50,126 bases of DNA, filler included, from Catajapyx aquilonaris (GCA_000934665.2; 2 parts of 2 records of this genome joined end to end with filler, not necessarily neighbours in it); one strand, 5' to 3'. Positions 24,937-48,822 are shown, counted from the whole stretch's first letter. Numbers and translations: made by a program. The notes: generated by a model from the letters alone, not told the origin.

Positions 24937-25036
24937 NNNNNNNNNNNNNNNNNNNNNNNNNNNNNNNNNNNNNNNNNNNNTTAATTAATTAANNNNNNNN
25001 NNNNNNNNNNNNNNNNNNNNNNNNNNNNNNNNNNNN
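24937..25036. other. Artificial assembly gap spacer N44-TTAATTAATTAA-N44
   Basis: Exactly 100 nt and symmetric. The central 12-mer gives stop codons in all six frames. Both flanks are G runs. Confidence 0.95.
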
Positions 25037-25162
25037 GGGGGGGGGAGAGAAAAGGGATGTTATTTTCTTTTTTCTTTTTTTAAACGTAGAGCTTGTAGTT
25101 CTTCCAATCGACACTAGAGAGCAGGCTGTTTTAAGCGGTGACTAGCGGCGAAAATTGGAACT

Positions 25163-26210
25163 ATGCTGAGATACGGTGGATACGGTATTTTGTTGGCTAT
25201 GGCGGACACCATGGGCGATGACGACGGTGTAGAAGGCACAACCACTATTGCTGATGCAAATAAGGGGACTAGAAAACGACAACAACGTGCGGCAAGTGAT
25301 GAGCGGAAAAAGAAGGCGGCCAGATACGCAGTCGACCCACAGCTTCCCGGCCCACAAAAGGTGCCCTGCCACCATCACAAAGATGTCCCAAAAGATGAGC
25401 CGAAGAGTGTGTACCAGTGCGCTGACCTTCGAGTGAGTGACATTGCCAAATTTCGGGAAAACCTCTTCCGATATCCTGACAAAATTCGGCAGGACAACTT
25501 CATCCTTATGAACTGCAGTGGCGTCAGTGTACAGCGGAGGCGTGCAGAAGACCCCAAGCGTTCACGAGTGTGTGCTAACGAATACAAGGTCCCTAAAATT
25601 TCTGGGAGGAAGGTACGTGTGTGCAAAGCCACATTCTTGGCTATTATCGCACCAATTGGTCGCAACAGGTTGGATGGGATCCTTGCAAGGCATTTTCATT
25701 CCGGGAGTGTGGCAGTGGAGAACAGAGGAGGGGACCACGTCTCTGGCAGAAGTTCAGAGAAGAAGAAGAAGAAAGTGTGTGAGTTCCTTGGCAGATTGAA
25801 GAACATTAAATTTGTACATGAGCTGTACTGCTCCACTGTTTCTCCTGAGTACGCAGTGACATATACCATGTTTTATCGAATATTTTCTCAACACCTCCCT
25901 CTGACACCAAGTCAGCAGATGTCATAAGTGGAAAAAAAAAAAAAAACAGCTGAAGGTTCATAATAAGCTACGAGCTAAGGCATTGGTCGATCCATTTCCA
26001 TCGGAGTGAGAGGCGAGCCTTACTACACCTCGGACACTCCTTCCTACGTGTCATTGCGGAAGAAGCGAGAGGCATTCCATGCTCCAGCCTACTCCGACTG
26101 TACTCCGTCGACCAATTCCAGAGGCAAAGAAGAAGGACATTGTCAAGCTGCTTCGAACTGCCTACATATGGGGAATCCTGGGAGAGCAATGATCTGCTGA
26201 AAGTTTTTCG
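25163..26210 (+). pseudogene. Internally deleted, frameshifted DNA transposase remnant, Chapaev/CMC-like
   Basis: Intronless 254-aa ORF with motifs recalled from Chapaev-type transposases (RVCKATFL..IGRNRL, ENRGGDH, NIKFVHELY, VTYTMFYRIF). Downstream out-of-frame pieces VRGEPYY and IPEAKKKDIVKLL. No catalytic core or TIRs found. Confidence 0.6.
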
Positions 26211-26664: not shown

Positions 26665-28410
26665 TCATATGTGGCATGCAGGGTGCTCACTGTGTTTGCC
26701 GTCATGATCCTCGGCTGACACTTCGTCAAGCGGGATGTTTCCCCTAAAATAATAAGTGATATATCATTAGTTGCCATTGCATAATTATAAAGGTAGGTAA
26801 TAATAAATAAAATAAAATAAATAAAAATTCCAGGCAGACACCAACGAATTAATGAAATTATTCCATGCCCATCCAAACAGTAATTGTGAACAACATGACA
26901 ATTATATTCGATTCTAATAATTAATCGAAAATAGAGCAAAATTACATAAGAGTGGATGGATGGCTTTACTTTGAATGGGGACAAAATGTAAATGACTATG
27001 TGCACAATAAATGCCGACATACTTGTATAAAAAGTAGTGCTGGATAAAGAAGGGGACATCAAACAGGAGAGACACCAGCCCAAGACCAAACTTTGTGAAG
27101 TCACCAAATATCTCTGTCCAGTCATCTGCCAAAGATAAAGATTGCACTAATTAAATAGACATTTTCTTTAAATTTCTAGTTTTACTCTACAGGAAAAGAT
27201 GGTTGTAACTTTTACTGTTTTACAGGTGGAAATATTTCTATGATATGCACTGCAATATCTCCAAACATATAATTATGTGCAAAACAATTCAAACAGGTCC
27301 AATGAACCCAAGTAGTTTAATTAGTACAGATGAGACTAAAGTTACTGTGTATAGCTGCTCATATGAGCCAATGAGTGCCCACAAAAAAATTCAGGCATAA
27401 CTTTTTCACTGCACCATTCATCTGGCATGCCCCACACCTGAAGAAGCTCCTATTGTTGTTATCCACCATAAAAGTTTCACCATCTAAAGTGCACTTACCA
27501 TTATTGTATGAAGTCATTAACATCTGGAGGATGCTGAAAGTTCCTCCAAGGAAGTCAATCCAAATTCCAGTAATGTTCCAACCATGTGTGCTCTTTCTCT
27601 TGAAGTTCATGTACATTTGTGGAACGTACTTTATGAAAGTTATTCCCAATTTAATATTTGCACAGACCATCAGGAAAGTCAGCCATTGTATAACACTTGC
27701 AGCTGCCAAAATCAAGCACACCACAAAGGTCACTGCAATGCAACCCAGGATGATGAGCGTAGATTTGGAAATTGTTTGGTTCCCTCTCTGCAAAAATACA
27801 TTATTAAAATATTAATTCATTAATTACACTCCACTACCCTGTATTACATGCAGGTGCATGGTTTTAAATCTTACATCATAGATTAGGCACTGCACAACAC
27901 CAACAGTTGCAGCAAGAACTGAATGCAAGGTGAAGATGACATCATTAAGCTGAACTGGATTTACTGCATGTGGTCTTGTACGAAAGTATTCACTCTGAAA
28001 AAATATGCATCACAGTTATAATAAATTGTGGACTGATCACAGGTCATGGGAACCTCATATATAACATTGAATACCAGCATATTTAACTGCTCTATTTTAG
28101 TGAGATGCAATATCATGTGGGATGTGGCCATGTAATATTATTTGGTGCATGCATGTCATAGGTATATAGATAATTTGAGCTGAGCCTTTCTCATGCCACC
28201 TGCATTATAGGCAGCTTCTTATTCCTTGCGTCTAGGAGACTCCCTAAAAAATAAAGTCATGGTGGTAGTGGTGTATGTGTGTACTGTACCTGCACTTCAG
28301 GAATCCAAAACAGGCCCACATTGAATAGGTTGTATAGAAAAAATCCTGTTTCACGCAGAGCCACCAGGTCGAGGCTCAAGCCCACAACACTGAAAACGAA
28401 GGGAATATTA

Positions 28411-28475
<65 letters not shown>

Positions 28476-30425
28476 AGTATATTCGTCACTGCCTTGATCC
28501 CATTCAGCGGTGACCAGTGATGACCAGATACATGCATCTGGCCATCTCGTTTGACCAATAGCCTACTGTTGGACGTGGATTTAGCAATCCCCTATCTTAA
28601 CGAGTCACACCTCACACGAGTATTAGTATTGCCACATTGGGCATAACAAGCTGACTTTACGTGTGCAATAGGAGGATTTCCTCATATTGTCATTCACAGT
28701 CCAGTATATAAGCATAACTTCTTGAAAGGACTAGTACCTGGACACAGGCTAGGTGACTCACGATTGGTAATGTAGCTGCTTGAATTAACCTGTAAGGCTG
28801 GCTCTTGGCCAGGCCTATGTTGAGATAACATCTAATTAATTGGAATTCTTGTGTAGCTTGAGTAACGTTGTGCTGCAACTATTTTCTAAAAACATTTGTA
28901 ATAATATCGACATTAAATTCATTTAAGACAACCCTACGAAAAGATTATTTGAACCTTCACACTTCATAAACCTGACTATGACAATACAATGAACCCTCAG
29001 GTGACTGGTCAGGCCATCCAGAGATCATAATGGATGATAAAATAAAGGGATCATTAGTATACTATTTATTATAGTACATGTACTTTGCTTTAACTTTGTG
29101 CCACATGTGGCTAATTCTGGACATGTATAAGCCATTGTGTATTTTCATGGATTCTTGTGAGAAATTGTGTTGCTGTATCATTTCTCCACTATGTATCCCA
29201 ATAATACTTTAATAATGCAACCTAGTCATACGTACACATATAAGGAGTTCCTCTTGAACCTTCACAGACAACTATTTTTGTCAAGTAAATTTTCACAGCA
29301 ATGATAGAAAAGGGTTTGTCCCTTGAATTGCTAACATAATTATATGTAATGAGAATTATTTTAGCATTGTTTTTATCTACAGCATCCAACTACTACTACT
29401 CAAAATATGGGCATGTGTGAATCATAGCATATAAAGTCTCCATGAAAATCATTATTACCGAAACAACTTTTACAGATTCTTTAACAGATCTATTAAAGGT
29501 TACCTTTTCCATCGCCAGTTATCGTAGATTTGGGGATACCATGAGACTGTCCAGGCTACAAAATAGATCCAGCCCACTACATCACTCACAATTTGAAGTG
29601 ATTTGTAATGCACAACTGTGACTCTAACGAAACAACCAGGGTACCTTGAGAGGGAGAGAGAGAAAAAAAAGGATGAAGGACTAATGATTAATGGAATCCA
29701 AAGCAAACAAAAAGAGTGGAACATTCATAATATCTACAGAATTTTAATTAAATGCTTCTTGATTGAAACTTAAAAGTGACTGCTTCATTTCAAATTTAAA
29801 AGGAATAATTTCAATACTCAATTGACTTGGTGATTACATTATGAACATTTAACTACATTAACATCACATTTGGGATGATGCACTCACTCATCAATATCTG
29901 TAGTCCTCATGAAGACACTGACCATAACGTTCCCTGCCTGTTCCCCGTGGACTGTGATGCTGACACTCATAGTGTCATTGATGACTGTGATGCAGGGAAT
30001 GTGAGAAATTATCCCATAATTGCTTTCATTAAAACAAATTGCAACATTGTCATAATTTTGCAGGGTCCTAAAAATGCATGAAACCATGTTTTTAAAATAT
30101 GTTACACAAATCAAATAAATACAGTACTGTACGAAATCCATCAGATGTGATTACTCTCAAGGGAAGTGACATGATTTATTTTCACATGACAGATAGAATC
30201 CATTTAATCGTTATCAAATTTTCTACTAGTACGATTTTATACAAGGCTGATTAAGAAATGCTAAAATCTCACCTGGTGTATAATAAATTAAAGGAAACGT
30301 TCTTGTCAACCTCCACGTAGAGATCTTGGCTGCCCACATCAACCTTTCCTAAACTTTCTTTCATAAAAATAAAACCAAATATGTTGATATAATAATAGTA
30401 ACAATGATGATGATGATGATTAATA

Positions 30426-30459
<34 letters not shown>

Positions 30460-30573
30460 CGACGACGATAATAAATTTTTACCTCTACTGTTTTTGTCAA
30501 TTGCTTCTGATCCATGCCATTGAAAACTCCACACCAAAATCACTACTAATAAATATTCACATGCCAGCAGCAT
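26665..30573 (-). CDS. CTNS: Cystinosin-like PQ-loop transporter, derived paralog A, 392 aa
   Basis: complement join(30483..30573,30273..30348,29888..30067,29504..29644,28290..28389,27875..27994,27499..27787,27023..27125,26665..26743), 1179 nt in frame. Signal-peptide-like start. [54 protein letters not shown]. Last exon assigned by phase and similarity to the other copies. Confidence 0.9.
28407..28472. repeat. (TAT)n microsatellite in CTNS-A intron 4
   Basis: Read directly; lies about 16 nt from the acceptor. Confidence 0.9.
30405..30470. repeat. (GAT)n/(GAC)n microsatellite in CTNS-A intron 1
   Basis: Read directly. Confidence 0.9.
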
Positions 30574-30613
30574 CTTTAAGCGTGACACAGGGTTAATGTC
30601 ACACTAGTGTACG

Positions 30614-30708
30614 TGATAAAATGGCAATGCTACACCCTCCAAGATAAGATAATAAACATGAAAATCAATCTGATTGATAAAATAAATTTTTAAGAAGATA
30701 AACTATCT
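30614..30708. promoter_or_regulatory. GATA-site cluster upstream of CTNS paralog A
   Basis: WGATAA at 30614, 30642, 30647, 30675 and 30696, plus CTATCT at 30703, all within 95 bp and 40-135 nt before the ATG. Confidence 0.45.
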
Positions 30709-32122
30709 CGTACGTGTCTGTACATCTCTTCATTGCATTGCAAAGTCAATGAACACCCAAGTTCACTGTGATGAACCTAATTTAACGGGAACTTCCCACT
30801 TTGGACTATTAATTTTAACTCCTCTGACTCACTCATGCAGTCAATGCAATACATGATTGTTATCAATTACTATTTGGAAATAACAGCTCAGGAGTATATG
30901 AGAAACTCAGAGAATAATTGTTACATAAACTGAGAGGGCAATCTCATCGACATAATAACAGTGGTTATAGGTTTATACTATTTTCGAACTTGTACCATTT
31001 TTTTGGTTGACTTTCTTCTAAAGTTGTTACCTATTAGTTCCTTTGAATTAGAAGTTTTTAAACCATTCACACAAATACACCTTGATAATTTTTAATAACT
31101 CAAAGCATCAATTACACTCACAAGTCAGTGTAAATTTGATCACCTAATGCAAATTAATATAATAGTATAACTTAATAGCGATTATGACAATTACACAATT
31201 ATTGGCACCACTACAGCCTGAATTTTATGCAATAAAAGTAAATAGTTCACATCAATTTCAATTGCCAAATTACAATAACAGGTATAAAAAAAATCCAAAT
31301 TGTCTGAATAGAAGAAATCAGAGAAATCTACTCCATTTTTGCTATGGCAGGAAGCTAACAAGGTCTCAAGTTATGCAAGAAAATGGAAATGAAGCATTAA
31401 CTCTTTCACTCCTGCCCATTAAGGAAATCACATGTGTGTTAAACGTGAAACTGTAATACTGAGAGGTCTGGGCTAACTGTAGTCAAGAACTAAGATGTTT
31501 TCTTTTGAGCCAAGACATAAAGAATCTCCGCATTGCAAATACAATCAACTCTGATTTGGCTAAGTGGATCTGGAAAAACCACACTCTAAAAGTCTAAGTG
31601 GAAAAATAGTGGAAACTAATTCTTTGTGATCATGTGTATCTGCATGAATATCTTCAAAATTTAAGTAGCAGGGCAATTTTCTAAACTAAATTTAATCATG
31701 ATTTTCGACAGTGATATTGAGTCAGTTTCGCTGCTGGTGATTGCACTTGTACTGGCTGTGATTATAAAAATTGGAATCGACAGAGATACTAAGCAACGGA
31801 TGATAAAGTGGAGTATAGTTGATGGAGTAATTCTACACAAAGTAGACATATGGATCTGTAGGCCGGATCTTTTCACATGTAGCATCATCGCTGAGAAAGT
31901 TAATTTGACCTTCAAATAGGATTTGCATTTTCTTCCATGCATATTCAGTAATACTGTACATATTTGGAACAAAAGAGTTAATGCTAACTAATGGATGGTA
32001 GCTTATAAAAATAAAACCTCGATATGCTGCTGAGAAATGCAACATAAATGTAACATGACTTCCTACGTGAGTAACCAAGATTCTGTTATTGAATAAAGGA
32101 ACTTGCACACCAGCAAGAGAAT

Positions 32123-33597
32123 TCAGTCTTTCGAAATCCCAAGATCGCTTGCAATTTCTTGCTGATAAGGAATACTGTCCCTGAAAGAAAGAAAAAAAAA
32201 TCAAAATGGATATAATTTTTTTCCGAGGAAAAGAAAATCTTACAGAAAATCTCATCAAATGTACGCTATTATATTGACAGTTCTCTGCAAAATTAGTTTG
32301 TCACAAATCAAAAAGGTCAGCCAGACCTACAGCATGCTCAATATTAATTTCTTCCAAATCAGGCCATTTGAATAATGCCTAAATAAACCTGCCCACCTGA
32401 TTTAACTTGACACTGCAAAATCGTATGTCACAGTTCATACACCCTATGTGATGTTTCATAATACAAAAATAAAATTTAGCATCATGTTTCTTGCAAGAAG
32501 TAAATAAACTTGTTGCTACTTTCACTACATTTTGATGATTGTGCTCCTGATTATAATGCAAAAGCCAATGTGTCAAAATTACTTGTGAAAGCTGCCCAAT
32601 ATTTTCATGCATGAATATGACTGTGACTTCCATTGAAGCATATTCCATTTTAACTACAGCATGCTGACTCACCCTACATTGCAACTTACTTATACAAGAA
32701 ATAATGCTGCAGGAAAAAGGTGAAATCAAATATTAAGGAGACGAGTCCTAATCCAAACTTGGTGAAATCTCCAAATATTGACGTCCAGTCATCTGAAAAT
32801 GTTAAGATTGTCGCAGACATCATGAAAAATTTCTTCAAACCCAACAACTCACTGTTATTATAACTAATTATGAACATTTGGATCATGCTGAAAGTCCCTC
32901 CTGTGAAATCGAGCCAGATTCCACCAATACTCCAACCTTGTGTGCTCTTCCTCCTGAAGTTCATAAAGGCCTGAGGAGTGTATTTTATGAAGGTTATTCC
33001 CAGTTTAATGTTGGAGCAGACAGTGAGAAAAGTGAGCCACTGGAAAACTGAAGCGGCTGCCAAAATTAAGCACACCATGACTGACACTGCAATTGCTCCT
33101 AGAACCAGGCATATTAATTTCGAAACCTTTTGGTTGCCTCTCTGAAAAGAAACAGGAACATAATTAATAGATATTATTGCAATTTACGCCTTGCATTGTC
33201 TTGAAAGAGCAGCACTCTCCAGTAGAGTTCCATCAGGCTTTTATGCTCTTGTAATGCAACCCAATTGTTAATTACTGCATGTATTTGTAAATATCCTGTA
33301 TACTCACATCATATATCAGGCACTGCACCACAGTGAAAAAGGTAGCAAACGTTGCATGCATTGTGAACACTACATCATTCAATTGGACTGGATTCACAGC
33401 TTGCGGTTTTGTAAGAAAGTATTCTCGCTGTCAATGAAAAAAAACTCCAGTAAGTTAATGAGCAACATTTATCATGACATACTTGTTTACCTGCACTTCA
33501 GGAATCCAAAATAGGCATATGTTGAACAAATTGTACAGAAAAAATCCTGTTTGACTCAAAGCAACAAGGTCAAAGTTGAGACCTACAACACTAAAAG

Positions 33598-33682
<85 letters not shown>

Positions 33683-34718
33683 CACTATAAACATGTAATT
33701 GCTAACAGGAGTAAGTTTAAAAATCTAATTTCAATTTTAATGTGCCTTACCTTTTTCTCTTCCAGTTTTCGTAAATCTGGGGATAAAATGAGACAGACCA
33801 CGCCAAAAAGTAGATCCATCCAGTCACGGCACTGACTATTTCCAGCGACTTGTAATGCACTACAGTCACTCGAATAAATGCTTCCGTAGTGCTTGAGAAC
33901 AGAAATGTGTGGGTGTTAATGTCACTATAAACATTACGCAATTACGTCAAGTTTCCACCAGCTTATTTTCCAATAGGAAAAAGAAGACGCATGCATAAAA
34001 TAACATAATACAATTTAGCCAAAATGATTTCTGTTATTAAAGTTATTACATTTTCATTGATAACCCAAGTAAGGAGTAATCCAAGGCAGACTCACTCAAT
34101 ATCTGGTTTGCTGGAATTGGCGGTGATAACTACATGTCCTGCTTGGATGCCATGCACTGTGAGCTTCTCCTCAGATTTGTTGACAAATTTGAAAGAAGGT
34201 ATGGGAGACACAATTCCAACATCATTAATGTAGATGTTGACAGTAAAATTCTCATCCTGAAAGGTCCTAAATAAATAGCAACTTTTATAAATATCTCTGA
34301 ATATGCATCGTAATACAAGAGAAGTCATGCATGAGTCATGAATGAGAGCTTTTTATAGCATAACTCAATGGTAGTCGGTACTGAAGTAGCAATAAAATAT
34401 TGTCATTATTGTTACGTATTCACTCTCACACATTCGGTAACATCAGAGAGTTTTCGCTTATAAAATACAATAACATTACCCCGTGTAGATTAAGCTGAAG
34501 GAGGAGTTCCTGTCTACTTCCACGTACAGGTCATGGCTTTTGACGTCAATTGACCCTTGAAAAAGCAATAAAATCCCAGCTGTTACAATTGAATAACTGG
34601 CACTATTTTTAACATGGTCAATACCAGCAAGGGTCGTCCTGTTGTTCGTTACAGCTGTCACACTCCACATGCAGTTCCACAAAAAGACCCAAACCAAAAC
34701 ATGTTTATAAGGCATCAT
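32123..34718 (-). CDS. CTNS: Cystinosin-like PQ-loop transporter, derived paralog B, 383 aa
   Basis: complement join(34625..34718,34480..34555,34096..34266,33751..33891,33491..33590,33308..33427,32853..33141,32690..32792,32123..32180), 1152 nt in frame. [46 protein letters not shown]. Confidence 0.92.
33601..33680. repeat. (AAT)n microsatellite in CTNS-B intron 4
   Basis: About 27 units abutting the acceptor region. Confidence 0.93.
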
Positions 34719-36119
34719 TTTCTCAGTGATGCACCATGACAAGCCAGAACTAAAACTGAGTAAGTCTTAACTTTCCCTATGCCTACTCACAATCACATGT
34801 TGACATTTTGTGATAGGCATGTGACAGATGCTGTTCCTCTATTCCTGAGGTGCCCAAGTAGAAGTGGTGTCGGGTGCACAACTAAAAGCACATGGCTTCA
34901 TATCCTATTTCAAACACTGATAACCAGAGTCTGACAGATTGTAATATTTTAGACTCTGATGTTCTCTTATTCATGCTGAAAAGAGGGGAAAAACAAGCAG
35001 TCAGTATATAACGATCCATAATAATTGAAGGAGTACCTGGAAGTGTGGTAAGTTGTAAGTGGAAAAATTACTTAAAATAGCAGGGCCCAAGGCCAAACTC
35101 GGCAGTATTATCTGAGGTTTTATTAGGCGCAGAATTTTTACTGTCATTCCATGCTTACTTAGTCATACGGTGAAACATTTGAAAGCTCAAAATGTTCCAA
35201 TTGGAGATGATTTTTATTTTCATACGTGAATTTCTTAGATCATGATGATTACAAGTCGACCTTTAGACAAATTCCGATTCTAGTTGGAAAAGGTAAATCC
35301 ACGAGGCATTGGCCACTGATTTTTGCAGCAAACTTTAATTTGATTTCACAAAGTGATTTGTAATGTGTGTTTACACCTGATTAAGTGAGTGGCTGGCCGA
35401 TGAGTACGTGGTTGGTGGGGTGAGATGCATATATACCTCGTATATCAGTCTGGCAGCAAATAAAATTATTAATGTCAAGAGCTCTTGTCAAGCCACTGAC
35501 ATGTTGAGGTTCAAGGACTTGAAACTTCTTCTACCTTAGTAATTTATATGTACAGTACACTTCCATGACAGAATACTTGCCACTCTTTCAGCAGGGAGGA
35601 TGAATTTTTTTTAGCCATTTACAGGTGACCTTCACAATAAGTCAACTTGATGGTTATGATCAGTTATGCAAATAGTACTACAACTTCTGATCTGGCGGAT
35701 TACAAATGAGGTCAGAGCAATGTTGCATAAATAATAAAGTGCAGATACGAGGCATAAATATTTTTTCCATTCATAATATTATTCACAGTGATTATATAAA
35801 GGGTTACAATCAGTCAGGTCATTATTTTTACAAAGTACAAAGTTGAAATGATGATATGCTGACATGTACAAAACTGAAACGGGCCTTTACAATTTATTAT
35901 GTACAGTTTACAAGAACCTTCTCAGTAACATTATGACAAATGCATCATTTAAATCCAGTCAGTGCTTTACAAATTAAAATGTGCAAATACTGTACATTGC
36001 TGTGTATAGTAATACCATCAAGTCCATTCTCTTCCAGTCTTTTTTACAGTAAGGAAAGGCTTCATTACGAGGCCGATTATGAGATTCTCCCAATGTGTTC
36101 AACATTATGCAATATTAAT

Positions 36120-39100
36120 TCACTGGTTCACAGATGAAGTAGGATTGGGATCATCCATTACTTCTTCATAAGGATCACGGCCCCTGCAATTAATGAAAAA
36201 TTTCCATCAGTTCACTAGTCAAGCACTTCTTTGTCTGTATTTATAATTTATAAAATTCTGAAAGAAAGACACTGCTTGTTTGCCTTCAAACAATACCTTT
36301 TTTTTTTTCATGCAACACGTTAGTACTTTTCAGGGATAGAAACAGAATCGTCCAAACTCTCTCGTTCAGTATCATGCCGTGGTTTATGTCTACAAGTCGA
36401 AAGAAGTTGGTGTTAGTGTTGTTAGTATAAAAGCGCTGTCACAAGGCACCGATTTTCCGCAGAAACAAAGAAAGCAATTCTGTTATTGGAAGCATTCTGT
36501 AACTGTCAAACCAAAAGCATAAGTCTTTGCACTGTCAAAAATTCAAGGCCTTATATAGTTTATGTAGCTCACATAACTTCATTTCACAATTTTACTGTCT
36601 CAATGAGTTAATTTACTTCATTACTTCCCAATCCACTACTTTAAAAAACTTTCAATACAGTGCGACATAAATTGCAAATATTTTCCAACAGTCTATTTGA
36701 TTTGTGACTTTGGAGTATCGAGTTGGCAAATTATGCCTCTTAAATAGCATATCAATAACAGACTGAGAGTCATATCTTAGAGACATCCACCATATTATGC
36801 TACCAGAAATCTTGCATTGAAGCTAGTACAATCCCCAGATTTCTATGGTATCAATGCAACGGCACAGTTGCAACTCCAGCAAACTGTCAAATGATTGTAC
36901 AGGACAATCCATTACATATGATGTCCAATGACATTCTACTCTTTTAAACCTAAATCTGAAGGCTGGAAAATATTTGTTTACTGCCTGTAGTTCGAGTCAT
37001 AACATTAAAACAGAATAAGGCCAGGGTATGCTTTGTCACTTCTTGTCTAGTCAGTCAGCAATGGTAACAGGAAAGGGTTGTTTTGAGCAGCAAGCAGGTT
37101 GAGGTCAGACACATCAGAAAAACAATTCTTATGGGTACTACATAACAAACACACAGAATGCAGATAACTAAGGCAGTATTAAAAGCAATTAAAGGCTGGC
37201 TTTGTAAGGTTTCACGACCCAAATGCACCAATCAACTTCAGGACATCGAATATTTTCCAAATAACTTCGCTCAATCACCAACTAATGAAGCCGACTGGTC
37301 CGCAACTTGGGATGGTGCACTTAAGCAATGACTTTTCCCCAGTACACGTACCTGTATAGAGCGTAGTGCTGCACCATGAAGAACACATCAAATATTATGG
37401 AGAAGAATCCCAAACCAAACTTTGTGAAATCACCAAATATTGAAGTCCAATCATCTGCAATAAACAGGTCATGTTAAGATCATGTCAATCAATGAAAAGG
37501 TCAACTTGTTCTTTCAACCCACCATTATTATATGAAAGGAGAAACATCTGCAATATACTGAAAGATCCACCAGTGAAATCAAGCATGACATTTCCTATGC
37601 TCCAGCCCACTGTTGACTTCCGCCTGAAGTTCATGTACGCCTGTGGCATGTACTTGATGAGCGTGATGCCCAGCTTCACATTTGCACACACATTCAGGAA
37701 AGTGAGCCACTCAAAGACACTGGCTGCGGCTAATATGAAGCATATCAGCACAGTGGCAACAATAGCACCCAGTAGGACCAGAGCTACTCTTGAGACCCGC
37801 TGATTTCCTCTCTCATATATAATGCACTGGATTATGGTCACGAAGGTGGCAAAGGTTGCATGCATTGTGAATACAACGTCGTTCAACTGCACAGGATTAC
37901 TTGCTTGTGGCTTTGGAGCAAAGTATTCATGCTGGAAAAAACATAACAGAAATGTGTATAAGAACTGTATTACACTATTAAAAAATAAATAATTTTATAC
38001 ATAAATAATTTCATACACAAATAATTCAATGCAAAAAAGGAAATAAATATCAGATATATGTATAATTTAGTGAACAAGCCATTCATAATCTTGAACTAAA
38101 ATTTTATTTGCACTATAATGACTTTCACTAATTGTAATATTATTATTCAATTATTGCACAGAAGAGGTTCTAGAAGATTATCAAAAGTCACATAAAAAAG
38201 ATATTGCCATTTACTCGCAAGAACTATTGTAACGTTAATTGCAGTGTAATTGACTGATATACACTTTGGCGAGAGGTCATGCAACTGAAATTATCTGGTA
38301 ATTGTTATATCTCTATTTACCTTTACTTCTGGGATCCAAAACAAGCCCACGTTGAACAAACCGTAGAGAAAAAATCCAGTCAGGTTGAGTGTCACAAAGT
38401 CAAAGTTCAGACCTACAACACTGAAGCAACAGAAAATTAATATAACTACACACACAATTTACTGGATGCAAACCAACCTTTTCCTCTTAAAGTTCTGGAT
38501 GATTTGCGGATAAAACGAAATGGACCAGGCAGCAAAGTAAATCCATCCCACCACATCACTGAAGACAGCTAAGGCTTTGAAGTGGACAACAGTTATCCTC
38601 ATAAAGGCTTCATCATGACTGTCAAGAAAAAACATTTCGCATTTAAAAAAAGGGAGAGTCAATCAAAAGTAACAAGTAAATATGAATGAAAATAACTTAC
38701 TCCACTGTAGAGTTTGAGTCAGTCACATTTGTGGTTAGAATCACATGTCCAGGGCTTAGTCCGTGAATGGCAACAATCTTCTGCTTGTCATTGACTTCAA
38801 ATTCTACGTCGGGCACAGGTGATATAATCCCAGGAATACTCGAGTTAAAATTGACTGTAAAGGGTTCATATCGAGGAAGACTGGAAGCAAAAAAAAGGAG
38901 ACAAAGTTCAGTACCAGCACTTGACTCATCTTCAGTTTTTCTCCTTATCCAAAGTCTCTGTGACGTACTTTGTAAAGGTTGTTTGTAAGAAAGGCCTTGA
39001 GAGGATCGTGGATGGCATGGAGAGATAAGTGTCATTAGAGGAGGAAATCAAGATCTTTACCCGATGTACACCAGAGGAAAGGTGGCGTTCTCCCCTTTCT

Positions 39101-40445
39101 CCAACGTGAGGTCATTATCTTTGACAGCAATGAGAGGGCAGTGATGACCTCTAAGCTGACCTGTGGAAAAAAAAAAAGTTGATCACAATCACATGCTACA
39201 CCATCAATCTCCCAACAAACAAGCTTTTATCTACAGAGTACTTGCACGCCTCTGATTAAATGCTTGTCACTAAAATCCAGTAATCGCCAGTTTTCATGCA
39301 GAACGTTGAATAAAACTTTTCAGTTATAGAAAATAATGACATCTTATTTATATTTACAATATTTCACCATTAATGACATAATATGTAGGTGACAATTGGT
39401 CATTGCAATTTAATTGCATCATCCTGACACCTCATTCAAGACAACTGAACAAATGCTGACAGTGAACAAACATCAAGTTAACTGATTATTCCCTTAAGCA
39501 CTACAGAGCACCAATGAGATTTTAAATAACACATTCACGAAATATTTTTGCTCGAAGAAAATACAATCAATGATATGAACAAATTTCAAGCTGTAATTAT
39601 GTTATCAAATTCTCCACCATATTCTCCACGATAATGACTAATAAGATTCATCAATTGTACGTCAGACATTATCATGAGTTTGTTGTACTTTCCTTGTAAC
39701 ATTTCAAACTGATAATTTTAACTCGCTAGGGTCCAACTTGACATAGCTTATCTGAGTAAATTTGAGAAACTGATCAATGAGTCCTCATTCAAATCTGGCC
39801 AGATTAACAATGCCGTTAAAATTAATGTACATAAAATCATTTGCCTGGAAAAAGAGTTTTTCATTGCTAAACAAGGCATTTGCAATATCTTTCTTAGTTC
39901 TCACATGCTGCATTTGCTAGAACGCAGTTTTACCAGATGGTCCACACTGATCCAACATGTAATTAACAATAGTGCCTGCGAACCTTCATTCTTAAGTGGG
40001 GCTTAAATGATGCCACGCTGGAGAGGAACACACGATAACATCACTTAAGATGCATTTCCCATGAAAAATACCTTGTCATGCAGCCAATGAGAACCTATAG
40101 ATAGCAAGATAACACCTAAATATAATTTCCTCAAGCACTTATGCATTCATTTCTGTGAAGTGCCAATATCTATTCATAAATTCTAAGTTGGCCTCTCCCC
40201 AAGATAATCCTCAACAAGATTAGGGGTAATCTAGGCGTGAACTTTTCCTGCTCAATCAGCCCGTACTGTGCGTAAATTTTCAAAGACATATCCGTACCTT
40301 GTGTCAAATTCAAGCAGTGGTTGACCTTCTCCGTCGTGACCACCACCACATCTGTCGTGACTCCTCTTGTGGTGGTTCCAGTAGGCAATGTCCACGCAAC
40401 GCTCCAGAGAATCACGAAAAAGCAGACCGACTTTGCACCCAACAT
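36120..40445 (-). CDS. CTNS: Cystinosin (lysosomal cystine/H+ exporter), canonical paralog C, 414 aa
   Basis: complement join(40298..40445,39061..39160,38701..38880,38478..38618,38321..38420,37523..37931,37352..37454,36120..36183), 1245 nt in frame. [64 protein letters not shown]-tail RGRDPYEEV (YxxPhi). Confidence 0.95.
36320..36389 (-). CDS. Putative alternative terminal exon of CTNS-C ([23 protein letters not shown])
   Basis: TACTAAC branch point (plus strand 36421-36427), pyrimidine tract CTTCTTTCGACTTGTAG, and the correct phase 2 continuation to a stop. Confidence 0.55.
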
Positions 40446-40901: not shown

Positions 40902-42459
40902 ATGGCGGCAAACATGGCGGCGTTAAAATGTGCTCTGGAGATGTGTAAGCGAGCGTTTTTGGGCAGTTTTGGAGCCGGTTCGAGGCCTGTGTGAGTATTA
41001 CAGATTGGTAGACAAATAGGCATCGAGTCTGCTACTTAGAGAGCAAAGAAAATACATGGGATTTGCTGTGAACTTGTAGAACAACTGGTTTTTTAAAAAA
41101 GTAAGTATGATAATTCATGTGTGTTTTTTCTAGGCTTCCAGTGCGCGATATCAACTCTCAGACTACGGCTGTGACGAGGATAAAAAGGCTGAAGTACGCC
41201 CGGATGTACCCGACACTCTTGGTCAGGCCAGATGGGTCCACCTTGACCATACGCTACCACGAACCAAGGAAGATCATCAAGGTGCAGATAATAGCAATGA
41301 GAAGTGACTGCAGCAGTCTTGTCGTTTCCTTATCAGATTTATCAAAAATAAGTACAGAGTATGCTGGTACTGTACTTGTGCACAGAACATATAGAAAACT
41401 GCACTTATTTTTTTCGCACTTGTTAATTCTGGGCTGTGGTACTAATGTGAGTTACATGTTTCTAAAGAGGGGGAGAAAACTGCTACAGTAATGTACGGAA
41501 AACGAGAACGATCTGACGTCATCGTTTCTTCTATTGTTGCTTTTTGTTGGCAATGTTTCGCAATGTTTACTCGTATTGTTCTGCGAGGGCATTTCCATAG
41601 GTCGTTCTCTCATTTTCCGTACATTATTATTATATTAATGTGATAGATTGAAGGATTACACATAGGCCTAGATACTGGAACACTGCCAATGAGGATGAGA
41701 GCATTACATAATAAAATGATAATTATGTGATCATTTATCCCATCGTCAAAATGGAATAACTGATAAAAAGAGACTCTGGAAATCACCTGCTACGTTATCC
41801 TGTTGTGTAACATAGTAACATGTATTTATCCCCTTCTTAGCAATATTGATTTATTGCATTATTCGTTAATGATGGAATGGATCAACCTTGTTAGCTCTTT
41901 CATTTTTTTTTATTATTTTTTTTCATTACCCCACGGGGGGAGTTATACTACTCTTTAGGGGGAGTGGGTTGCCACCTTTGGAATTGTTTTTGGAGCGAGT
42001 TTAAGAAGAATCTTAATTAGTATGCTCCAAGGGTGGGTGGGAGGGGATGCGCAAAGTGCAAGTGCAATGTCTCTAATCGTCATTTTGTGAACTCCCCCGG
42101 GTGGCTTAGTCTGCCGGAAATTGCCACCCGAAACGAAGCCAGAGATGGCCCAACTCTGCACGAAAGAAGGTGGGAACCCCGGGTGGGGATTGAACCCGGG
42201 ACCTTAACTTCCGTGGGCGCGCGCGTTACCGCAGCGCCACTCCGTCTCCCCGTTAGCGCTTTCATTATTGGACTCTTACCTTTGTTGTCGTGGCTGAACA
42301 AGTACTTTCTTCCAGCTTCCTTTGGACCTGTCGACCTTGACAGAGGAGGAGAGACGAATCCGTTTGGAGCTTCGGAAACCAAGGAAGAAGCGAGTTGTTC
42401 AAGATGACATCGAAGACACTTTCGATGCCAACCAATACAAACACCTGTGGAAAAACTGA
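40902..42459 (+). CDS. mRpL55: Mitochondrial ribosomal protein L55 (bL31m), 126 aa (122 from the second ATG at 40914)
   Basis: join(40902..40990,41134..41281,42316..42459), in frame. Family motifs TRIKRLKYARMYPTLLVRPDGSTLTIRYHEPRKIIK|LPLDLSTLTEEERRIRLELRKP...FDANQYKHLW. Presequence-like N-terminus. Confidence 0.93.
41489..41626. mobile_element. Small MITE in mRpL55 intron 2
   Basis: TAATGTACGGAAAACGAGAACGA at the left mirrors TCGTTCTCTCATTTTCCGTACATTA at the right. Confidence 0.6.
41905..42251 (-). mobile_element. tRNA-derived SINE (different family) in mRpL55 intron 2
   Basis: Head GGGGAGACGGAG-TGGCGCTGCGG...GGTTCAATCCC, A-rich tail. 15-bp TSD GTTAGC(T/G)CTTTCATT at 41890-41904 and 42252-42266. 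Confidence 0.82.
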
Positions 42460-47356: not shown

Positions 47357-48822
47357 TTAGTGACTCATCACACTGCTTTCCACAGCTTCCTGAAATAGAA
47401 TAAAACCAATATAGTTAAAATGCACAGGCAAGAACTAAATAGCATGAAATTACCCTGAGTTCTTTGATATCCTTGGTCCAATCTTTGTTGGCAATCTTCG
47501 GAACCACGTGCTGAAACAGACGAGTTACATTGTGAGCATTCTTCTTAAAGGTTTCCACCACTCCCATGGCGGAAACCCTCTCTCCCTCCTCACGCCAGCA
47601 GTCATAGTCTGTCGCCATGGCCACGGCAGCGTAGTGTAAACCAGCTTCTTTGGCCAGCACCACCTGAGAAAATAATTTCAGGAGAAAATAGTAATGAGGG
47701 TCACTTGGATGTCACACTTTAATTGTGCATTATATTGCTGCTATAGTTCACAGCTCTTGCCCATTGTGATGGCAGTACTATTTAAGGCTGAATGTGCTGT
47801 ACCAAGAGCTAATGGCTGTACGTATTAATAGAACCGGAACTGCTGATTGTCAAGGAACTCCATTGCAATTTCCTTGCTGTAACAAAGCAATGGATGGTCA
47901 TCAATGCGACACATGCGATGAACAAATACTCCCCTCACAGATCTGACCCATATCCTGGTACACGTGCTGAATTGTGATAATGCCAAAAGGACATGTACTG
48001 AATTGTTCAGAATTTGGCTTGGTCTCGAGTCACCCAATGACACGGACTGAACCTGTGAAAGTGCAAAGGAACATATCACTTCAAAACTCTTACCTCAGGC
48101 ACTGTAGTCATGTTGATAACATCCCCTCCCCACGACTGGTACATCTTAGACTCGGCTCTGCTTGAAAATCTCGGCCCTTCGATCACCACGCATGTCCCAT
48201 GCGGCTTGTACTCCAATCCAAGCTGGTCACACCCATCCTGAAGGATGCTCCTAACCGTCTTGCTAAACGGGGCATCCATCTGGATGTGACACACACCCTT
48301 AGGGCTGTTTTCGCTTCCATCGTAAAAGGTCTGGATGCGACTCCTGGTTCTGTCGATGAACGAGTCCAGGAGCACCAATTGGCCTGGCTTGATGTGGGCC
48401 TGAAGCGATCCCGTTGCAGTCGACGCAAGCACCACCTGGCACATGAACTTGCTTAAATTTTATCCTACTGATGATGGTAACGGCCAATGTTACCTGGCAC
48501 CCAGCCTGCTTCAAAGCCCAGATGTTAGCGCGGTAGTTGACATTGGACGGGTTGATTGAGTGTGTACGGCCGTGACGTGCCAGCAAAACGCAGGCCACAC
48601 CAGACATCCGGCCGTGGATAAGCACATCCGACGGACATCCAAACGGAGTGGTCACAACCTCCTCCCGGCGGCCCTCCAGTATGTCCGGGTCATCCAATCC
48701 GGACCCACCGATGATCCCAACCTGCAGGATATAATTTCAGATTTTCAGTCTCACCTAGTAGTATACTTGTACATTACTAACGTAGTACTTGCCTTGATTG
48801 CAGGTGCTGCGTCTCCGGACAT
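47357..48822 (-). CDS. MTAP: S-methyl-5'-thioadenosine phosphorylase, 280 aa
   Basis: complement join(48793..48822,48494..48721,48094..48435,47454..47663,47357..47389), 843 nt in frame; first intron GC-AG. Motifs [56 protein letters not shown]. Confidence 0.96.

Follow-up and report, generated by a model that had tools for sequence, protein, structure and literature searches.

Three cystinosin genes in tandem

Cystinosin is the prototype of the proton-driven lysosomal amino-acid exporters, and its gene is mutated in cystinosis. Here we describe a cluster of cystinosin genes in a stretch of 50,126 nucleotides from Catajapyx aquilonaris, two records of the genome joined with filler, which is called the window below and to which all coordinates refer. 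Between positions 26665 and 40445, gene models built from the coordinates give three complete cystinosin genes, termed A, B and C, which lie head to tail in tandem on the minus strand; the outer coordinates are the stop codon of A (26665) and the start codon of C (40445). Copy C (40445-36120) is a canonical cystinosin of 414 residues, encoded by 8 exons (40445-40298, 39160-39061, 38880-38701, 38618-38478, 38420-38321, 37931-37523, 37454-37352 and 36183-36120). Copy B (34718-32123), a derived paralogue of 383 residues, has 9 exons (34718-34625, 34555-34480, 34266-34096, 33891-33751, 33590-33491, 33427-33308, 33141-32853, 32792-32690 and 32180-32123), and so has copy A (30573-26665), the most derived of the three with 392 residues (30573-30483, 30348-30273, 30067-29888, 29644-29504, 28389-28290, 27994-27875, 27787-27499, 27125-27023 and 26743-26665). 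The genes are spaced by about 1.4-1.5 kb, and a tblastn search of the window with the three proteins gave matches at these three loci only. All introns have GT-AG boundaries and there are no internal stop codons, so that the exon models bear out the three intact CTNS paralogues that a first-pass annotation of the sequence had proposed.

Exon lengths and phases correspond across the copies, with exons of 141, 100 and 103 nucleotides, for example, present in all three. The single 409-nucleotide exon 6 of C (37523-37931) is equivalent to exons 6 and 7 (120 and 289 nucleotides) of A (27499-27994) and B (32853-33427), which are split by a phase-0 intron that is missing from C. Either this intron was lost in C or it was gained in A and B; in both cases the difference in intron content shows that the copies stem from duplication at the DNA level and are no retro-copies. 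The first exons were placed by reading frame, splice sites and a hydrophobic, signal-peptide-like start and are without homology support, while the short last exons encode tails that are similar to the tails of homologues.

Several features of the introns were seen alongside the models. In copy B, intron 1 (34556-34624, 69 nucleotides) and intron 7 (32793-32852, 60 nucleotides) are both multiples of three and free of stop codons, and their retention would insert 23 and 20 residues in frame; an open frame of 165 residues at 32686-33183 reflects such a stop-free intron of B. AT-rich trinucleotide arrays with the units TAT and TAA lie directly upstream of exon 5 in both A (28406-28474) and B (33600-33680), and they occur in both copies despite the synonymous saturation of the coding sequence described below. 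Intron 1 of copy A contains an (ATG)n microsatellite at 30404-30459.

Assignment to the cystinosin family

Both PQ-loop repeats were recognized in each protein by the Pfam family PF04193 (cut-off 22 bits), with scores for A, B and C of 32.7, 40.3 and 41.7 bits for the first repeat and 62.0, 60.7 and 67.2 bits for the second. The only significant matches in the PDB, all over the membrane core, were human cystinosin (8dke, 8dkw, 8dyp) and its Arabidopsis homologue (7zk1). With TIGR00951, a single 96-residue exon piece of each copy reached 78.0 (A), 83.8 (B) and 94.8 bits (C), to be read against a cut-off of 192.35 bits that is set for the whole protein. On these profile and structure matches we assign the locus as a triplet of cystinosin (SLC66A4-type) genes, whose products belong to the seven-helix PQ-loop family of H+/cystine exporters.

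Among solved structures, human cystinosin (CTNS/SLC66A4; 8dke, 8dki, 8dkm, 8dkw, 8dyp) is the best match for all copies, and its alignment is free of gaps from human residue 185 to 324 with C and from 229 to 323 with A. Like the human protein, the copies have a pair of PQ-loop repeats and a shared set of key residues, and their N-terminal part, with N-x-S/T sequons, would be luminal. Hydrophobic residues make up 15-17 of the first 25 positions, and there are 3 sequons in A and 5 each in B and C, with the reservation given above for the first exons.

The C-terminal tail has a Tyr-x-x-hydrophobic motif in C, has a tyrosine without the canonical spacing in B, and has no tyrosine in A, unlike the GYDQL-type tyrosine motif of the human tail. 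A re-targeting of A was considered on this ground and rejected, because canonical invertebrate homologues (P0001-P0003) also have a tail without tyrosine.

Transport machinery and cavity residues

Human numbering was fixed by alignment to the PDB chain 8dke_P, which is numbered as human cystinosin, and this alignment confirmed the numbers that had been used for F142, N166, K273, K280, N301 and D305. All three copies retain W138, P144/Q145, D161, G169, F170, D205, K273, K280, Y281, P283/Q284, N288, D305, G308, G309, K335 and D346. The earlier observation that A and B keep both lysines, D205, D305, D346 and both PQ motifs is therefore correct. Lobel et al. 2022 (PMC9385667) show K273, K280, D305, D205 and K335 to be essential for human cystinosin, and find that uptake by the plant protein needs Trp24, the equivalent of human W138. 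The same paper places D205 in a salt bridge of the luminal gate, and not in the cystine site, to which the first-pass annotation had allotted it.

The retained residues are nearly invariant elsewhere: K273 is found in 152/155 homologues, K280 in 151/155, D305 in 153/155 and W138 in all of the 85 that cover this position. Cystinosin of Arabidopsis thaliana (7zk1, 7zkw, 7zkz; PMC9385667) belongs to the same fold family, with Asn at the equivalents of 166 and 301 and Phe at that of F142. Its cystine contacts Lys166, Asp191 and Trp24 are the equivalents of K280, D305 and W138, all of which are retained in A, B and C. The plant protein has no luminal N-terminal domain, and a Lys and a His take the place of G169 and F170 of animals; A and B resemble animals at G169/F170, but their residue 166, one turn away, is changed.

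Copy A carries F142W, N166R and N301G, copy B carries N166S and N301G, and copy C is canonical at these positions; the alignment thus agrees with the changes read first from the sequence, and the motifs in which they were seen (FVTLNLTGF and WSIGNVMLD in C, LVALSQTGF and WSIGGIWLD in B, WTVSWYPQ in A) were all found in the respective genes. Beyond these, residue 167 is changed to Glu in A (L167E) and to Gln in B (L167Q), F162L, V302I and L303W are common to both, and R152W, S298N, G300T and L304I occur in A only. The two copies hence differ from human cystinosin by the loss of N166 and N301 and by the new residues at 162, 167 and 303, and A differs further at 142, 152, 298 and 300. On the minus strand, the Arg166-Glu167 codons of A lie at 28350-28355, the Ser166-Gln167 codons of B at 33551-33556 and the canonical Asn166 codon of C at 38384-38386. 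The stretch Gly301-Ile-Trp303-Ile-Asp305 of A is encoded at 27554-27568 and Gly301-Ile-Trp303-Leu-Asp305 of B at 32908-32922, while the Trp142 codon of A (Phe in B, C and human) lies at 29539-29541, likewise on the minus strand.

The loss of N166 stands out among these changes. In the 77 homologues used for the tree (see below), 40 columns reach a conservation of at least 90%; C deviates at none of them and A and B at one each, which in both is N166. At the lower threshold of 80% (73 columns) the deviations number 2 in C, 3 in B and 9 in A. Asn166 is present in 94/98 and 61/61 of the homologues covering the position in two sets, or 155/159 together; the four exceptions are a mantis-shrimp 'cystinosin-like' protein with Glu and a snail protein and two unnamed proteins with Ser. 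Positions 166 and 167 are among the 20 columns where all three copies of the window differ from each other, and the changes F162L and L303W, which A and B have in common, are found in 1% and 6% of the family.

In the plant protein, Lys55 and His56 on helix 2, whose human equivalents are G169 and F170, contact cystine (PMC9385667). N166 precedes G169/F170 by 3-4 residues on the same helix face, with F162 one turn further, and in an alignment of the internal repeats with HMMER, N166 of repeat 1 lies opposite D305 of repeat 2. From this pseudo-symmetry, N166 should be placed as deep as the proton and amino-group site and line the substrate cavity. The new arginine of A had been taken as a hint at an anionic ligand; this hint is weak, as the new Glu167 lies next to Arg166 and no net charge is added. 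As a speculation, Arg166 of A could pair with D305 and thereby alter the coupling.

At two further, otherwise conserved positions the trio as a whole carries changes specific to its lineage. All three copies have Asn at human position 271, where 83% of the family has Tyr, and Phe at position 329, in the Gly-Asp-Pro-Thr-Lys stretch after helix 6, where five aligned homologues have Pro.

Age, selection and phylogeny

Protein identity is 60% between A and B, 59% between B and C and 52% between A and C. Synonymous sites are saturated, with a proportion of synonymous differences of 0.69-0.78 and a synonymous distance (dS) of at least 1.2 by the NG86, LWL85, YN00 and maximum-likelihood methods wherever the method returned a value. 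The non-synonymous distance (dN) in the membrane core is 0.18-0.27. Over the whole gene the dN/dS ratio lies at 0.04-0.26, and in the membrane core at 0.04-0.15, where A compared with B or C reaches about 0.1-0.15. A ratio near 1 for A and B, which the first-pass annotation had named as speaking against its proposal, was thus not found. Saturated dS together with dN/dS far below 1 indicates that the duplications are old and that purifying selection has acted on all three copies for most of the time since.

Homologues were collected with a profile built on exon 7 from copies A and B, which gave 1956 matches among 1.84 billion representatives clustered at 50% identity; the best 150 of these were examined. 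For the tree, those 77 of 155 homologues that cover W138 and K335 were combined with A, B and C to 80 rows; P0006 and P0007, whose sequences resemble tandem genes fused in prediction, were left out. The tree comes from a quick search under LG+G4 with support from the Shimodaira-Hasegawa-like approximate likelihood ratio test (SH-aLRT) only. It gives the topology (C,(A,B)), with a support of 99 for the clade of the three window copies and of 100 for A and B as sisters; with the trait columns masked, the values are still 99 and 99. The branch lengths are 0.21 for A, 0.093 for B, 0.12 for C and 0.14 for the stem of A and B, and the median terminal branch of the tree is 0.44. Among the best 150 of the 1956 matches, the nearest named homologues are from the insects Timema, Lamprigera and Diploptera.

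Exon 7 of A and that of B were also searched by word index. For A this gave 5 matches among longer proteins, the best with 63% identity, and none at near length; for B it gave 65 matches among longer proteins, the best with 70% identity and all with Asn166. A scan of metagenome loci for orthologues of A and B returned one weak partial match (49% over 35 residues).

Duplicated and divergent cystinosins elsewhere

The view that cystinosin is usually single-copy in animals, from which the first-pass annotation started, proved too strong. Many independent duplications of cystinosin have taken place in eukaryotes (P = 12), after which the paralogues diverged to two recurring 'fates' between which no difference in function is known (von der Dunk and Snel 2020, PMC7414715 Table 1), so that duplication is not rare and recurrent divergence after it is, according to this table, known already. 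The trio described here fits the pattern. PMC7414715 reports a genome-wide statistic on two-copy species, and the section with this table mentions neither individual residues nor a triplet in arthropods nor a connection to the substrate cavity. Among the papers listed by a literature search for cystinosin together with 'paralog', none is a functional study of copies of this kind.

Other signs of duplication were seen among the homologues. In the two best-scoring representatives, P0006 (532 residues) and P0007 (522 residues), the second half of cystinosin is present two or three times per protein, and they look like tandem cystinosin duplicates of other organisms that were merged by gene prediction. 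A pair of cystinosin genes is seen in several plants, and in Corymbia the two have adjacent locus tags.

Changes at the same positions as in A and B occur in some invertebrate proteins annotated as 'cystinosin-like'. In XP_076058805.1 of Oratosquilla oratoria (P0081), with E166, G280 and S301, Asn166 and Asn301 are both replaced, and Asn301 is replaced in a second Oratosquilla protein (XP_076062039.1), in Panulirus ornatus (XP_071528733.1) and in Lingula anatina (XP_013397284.1, with S301 and W303). Position 303 is often aromatic in such proteins, and some of them, unlike A and B, have lost K280 or K273. They fall outside the clade of A, B and C, which means that their changes arose independently of those in A and B. 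None of them has a described function; in a literature search, 'cystinosin-like' was found in one paper only, as a differentially expressed gene.

Proposed function of copies A and B

We tentatively interpret the locus as the result of an old triplication in tandem of the cystinosin gene that is specific to this lineage, in which C would be the housekeeping H+/cystine exporter and A and B would be sister paralogues that selection has kept working over a long time. The transport machinery kept in A and B comprises both PQ motifs, D205 and K335 as the pair of the luminal gate, D305 as the site for the proton and the amino group, D346, the lysines K273 and K280, which clamp the carboxylates, W138 and Y281. 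The part that has changed is a stripe of the cavity formed by helix 2 (F162L, N166S/R, L167Q/E) and by helix 6 before D305 (N301G, L303W). A and B would then be expressed and lysosomal, working as proton-coupled exporters of a cystine-like amino-acid substrate. Their selectivity, affinity or proton coupling may have shifted from that of canonical cystinosin, in A further than in B, which we judge almost as probable as its absence. A change of substrate, for which the loss of N166 is now the main ground, is plausible.

Several results weigh against this interpretation. N301G had been proposed as a marker of specificity, but this position is variable across the family: it is other than Asn in 35/155 and 9/62 homologues of the two sets and in 24 of the 80 tree rows, and the tree requires 17 changes or more. 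In 15 muroid rodent cystinosins (P0027, P0221-P0234) it is Gly in 14, Mus musculus included, and Ser in Cricetulus, while snake and fish sequences and three other representatives of the vertebrate clade have Asn301. Loss of Ctns in mice and rats leads to cystine storage (PMC3418268, PMC6397714); since the native rodent residue is Gly301, a glycine at this position is compatible with cystine export. By the knock-out storage phenotype described there, these animals have muroid cystinosin (for example Mus musculus XP_011247625.1) as their one functional cystine exporter. It shares Gly301 with A and B but, unlike these, keeps N166, F162, L167 and L303, and hence N301G alone does not change the job of the protein. 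We therefore rejected N301G as a substrate switch. The fold also tolerates a change here, as the PDB chain 8dyp_A has Ala at 301.

Position 301 was also compared with other cavity residues. An aromatic residue at 303 is found in 12/24 rows without Asn301 and in 3/56 rows with it (Fisher's test, 1.2e-5, which ignores relatedness), and all five tree rows that lack Asn166 also lack Asn301 (0.0019, with the same restriction), while a Ser166 protein outside the tree set, P0041, keeps Asn301. Tree-aware tests with independent pairs, of which only 5 (301-303) and 3 (301-166) were usable, gave p values of at least 0.5 and are underpowered. Apart from the invertebrate proteins named above, some legume and cucurbit homologues combine Gly, Thr or Pro at 301 with Gly or Ala at 142 (P0194, P0195, P0202, P0208, P0213, P0170, P0217, P0218).

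The remaining points on this side concern N166 and the history of the copies. N166S in B is a mild polar-to-polar change, and the snail protein P0041 has Ser166 together with Asn301. That N166, N301 and F142 contact cystine directly, as Guo et al. 2022 reportedly describe, is an assumption here. A literature search found no paper that describes N166, N301 or F142 of cystinosin by residue name. Given the saturated dS, constraint on A may have been relaxed recently. A close orthologue of A or B was found neither by the word index nor in the metagenome loci nor among the best 150 of the 1956 profile matches; close orthologues could be hidden inside the 50% clusters of the profile library, and the lineage seems poorly sampled.

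Instead of having changed their substrate, all three copies may export cystine, each in its own tissue or stage or with its own regulation, pH optimum or kinetics, and the cavity changes would be near-neutral tuning. We regard such a sub-functionalisation as possible, if on the doubtful side; if A and B simply transport cystine, the locus is an ordinary tandem expansion of a gene family. The conservation in A and B of all residues shown to be essential for cystine transport (PMC9385667) would fit it, as would the strong purifying selection, which is expected for an unchanged core function, and the fact that each copy has its own upstream region of 1.4-1.5 kb and its own first exon. Position 301, which is natively Gly in rodent cystinosins that export cystine and has changed repeatedly on the tree, as well as the conservative Ser for Asn166 in B are also in line with mere tuning. 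It accounts less well for the substitution of Asn166 itself, the only column conserved to at least 90% that A and B break. The combination of Arg-Glu at 166-167 with F142W and R152W in A is hard to call neutral, and the two family-rare changes on the stem of A and B, F162L and L303W, adjoin the same site.

An improbable alternative is that transport has been lost, and that A, and perhaps B, is a lysosomal sensor, regulator or scaffold, or that A is in early decay. Copy A indeed has the longest branch of the three and deviates at 9 of the 73 columns conserved to at least 80%, compared with 2-3 for C and B, and Arg166, pseudo-symmetric to D305, could pair with this residue and so block the site. 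Other homologues without Asn301 do lose site residues, keeping K273 in 21/23, K280 in 20/23 and Y281 in 20/23 cases, whereas the canonical rows keep each of them in 54/54. A and B, however, keep all three, and A retains every gate, proton and lysine residue along with all nine exons and their splice sites. Its low membrane-core dN/dS against B or C also argues against a loss of transport, and there is no sign in the sequence of a new interaction module.

That the copies are an assembly duplication, collapsed haplotypes or unexpressed pseudogenes is hardly credible and was rejected, for although the window contains two assembly gaps just downstream of copy A (runs of 44 N each at 24937-24980 and 24993-25036), a protein identity of 52-60%, saturated synonymous sites and differing intron lengths exclude haplotypes and assembly repeats, and all reading frames and splice sites are intact with a low dN/dS.

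A bolder version of the shift in A and B, which we think rather unlikely, would make them the first known cases of lysosomal exporters that derive from cystinosin but form a functional class of their own. Their cavity would have been retuned for a ligand other than cystine by the replacement of Asn166 together with F162L, the polar residue at 167 and Trp303, and Arg166-Glu167 would in addition change the proton coupling of A. Candidate ligands would be a mixed disulfide or a diamino-dicarboxylate other than cystine, of the disulfide or thioether type. If this were true, C would provide a built-in control, and the trio would form a natural specificity series for the PQ-loop fold.

The determinants of cystinosin's narrow substrate range are known from few mutants only. 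With a canonical copy beside two long-preserved copies that differ at the near-invariant cavity residue N166 and its neighbours, the locus is a ready-made experiment on the roles of Asn166 and of helix 2, and it could reveal a new lysosomal export activity in arthropods. It also corrects an expectation, in that Asn301 is not a determinant of specificity, as rodents use Gly.

Neighbouring genes

Next to the two N runs, an open frame of 261 residues (25142-25927, plus strand) was found, which has no Pfam match. On the other side of the cluster, two open frames at 48076-48736 on the minus strand match the phosphorylase superfamily PNP_UDP_1 (PF01048, 5.6e-20 and 1.4e-4) and are probably a nucleoside phosphorylase gene upstream of the cluster. 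Closer to copy C, an exon of mitochondrial ribosomal protein L55 lies at 41114-41491 on the plus strand (PF09776, 2.2e-17). The L55 gene is divergent from C, head to head and about 0.7 kb from its start codon, which suggests that the two genes share a bidirectional promoter region.

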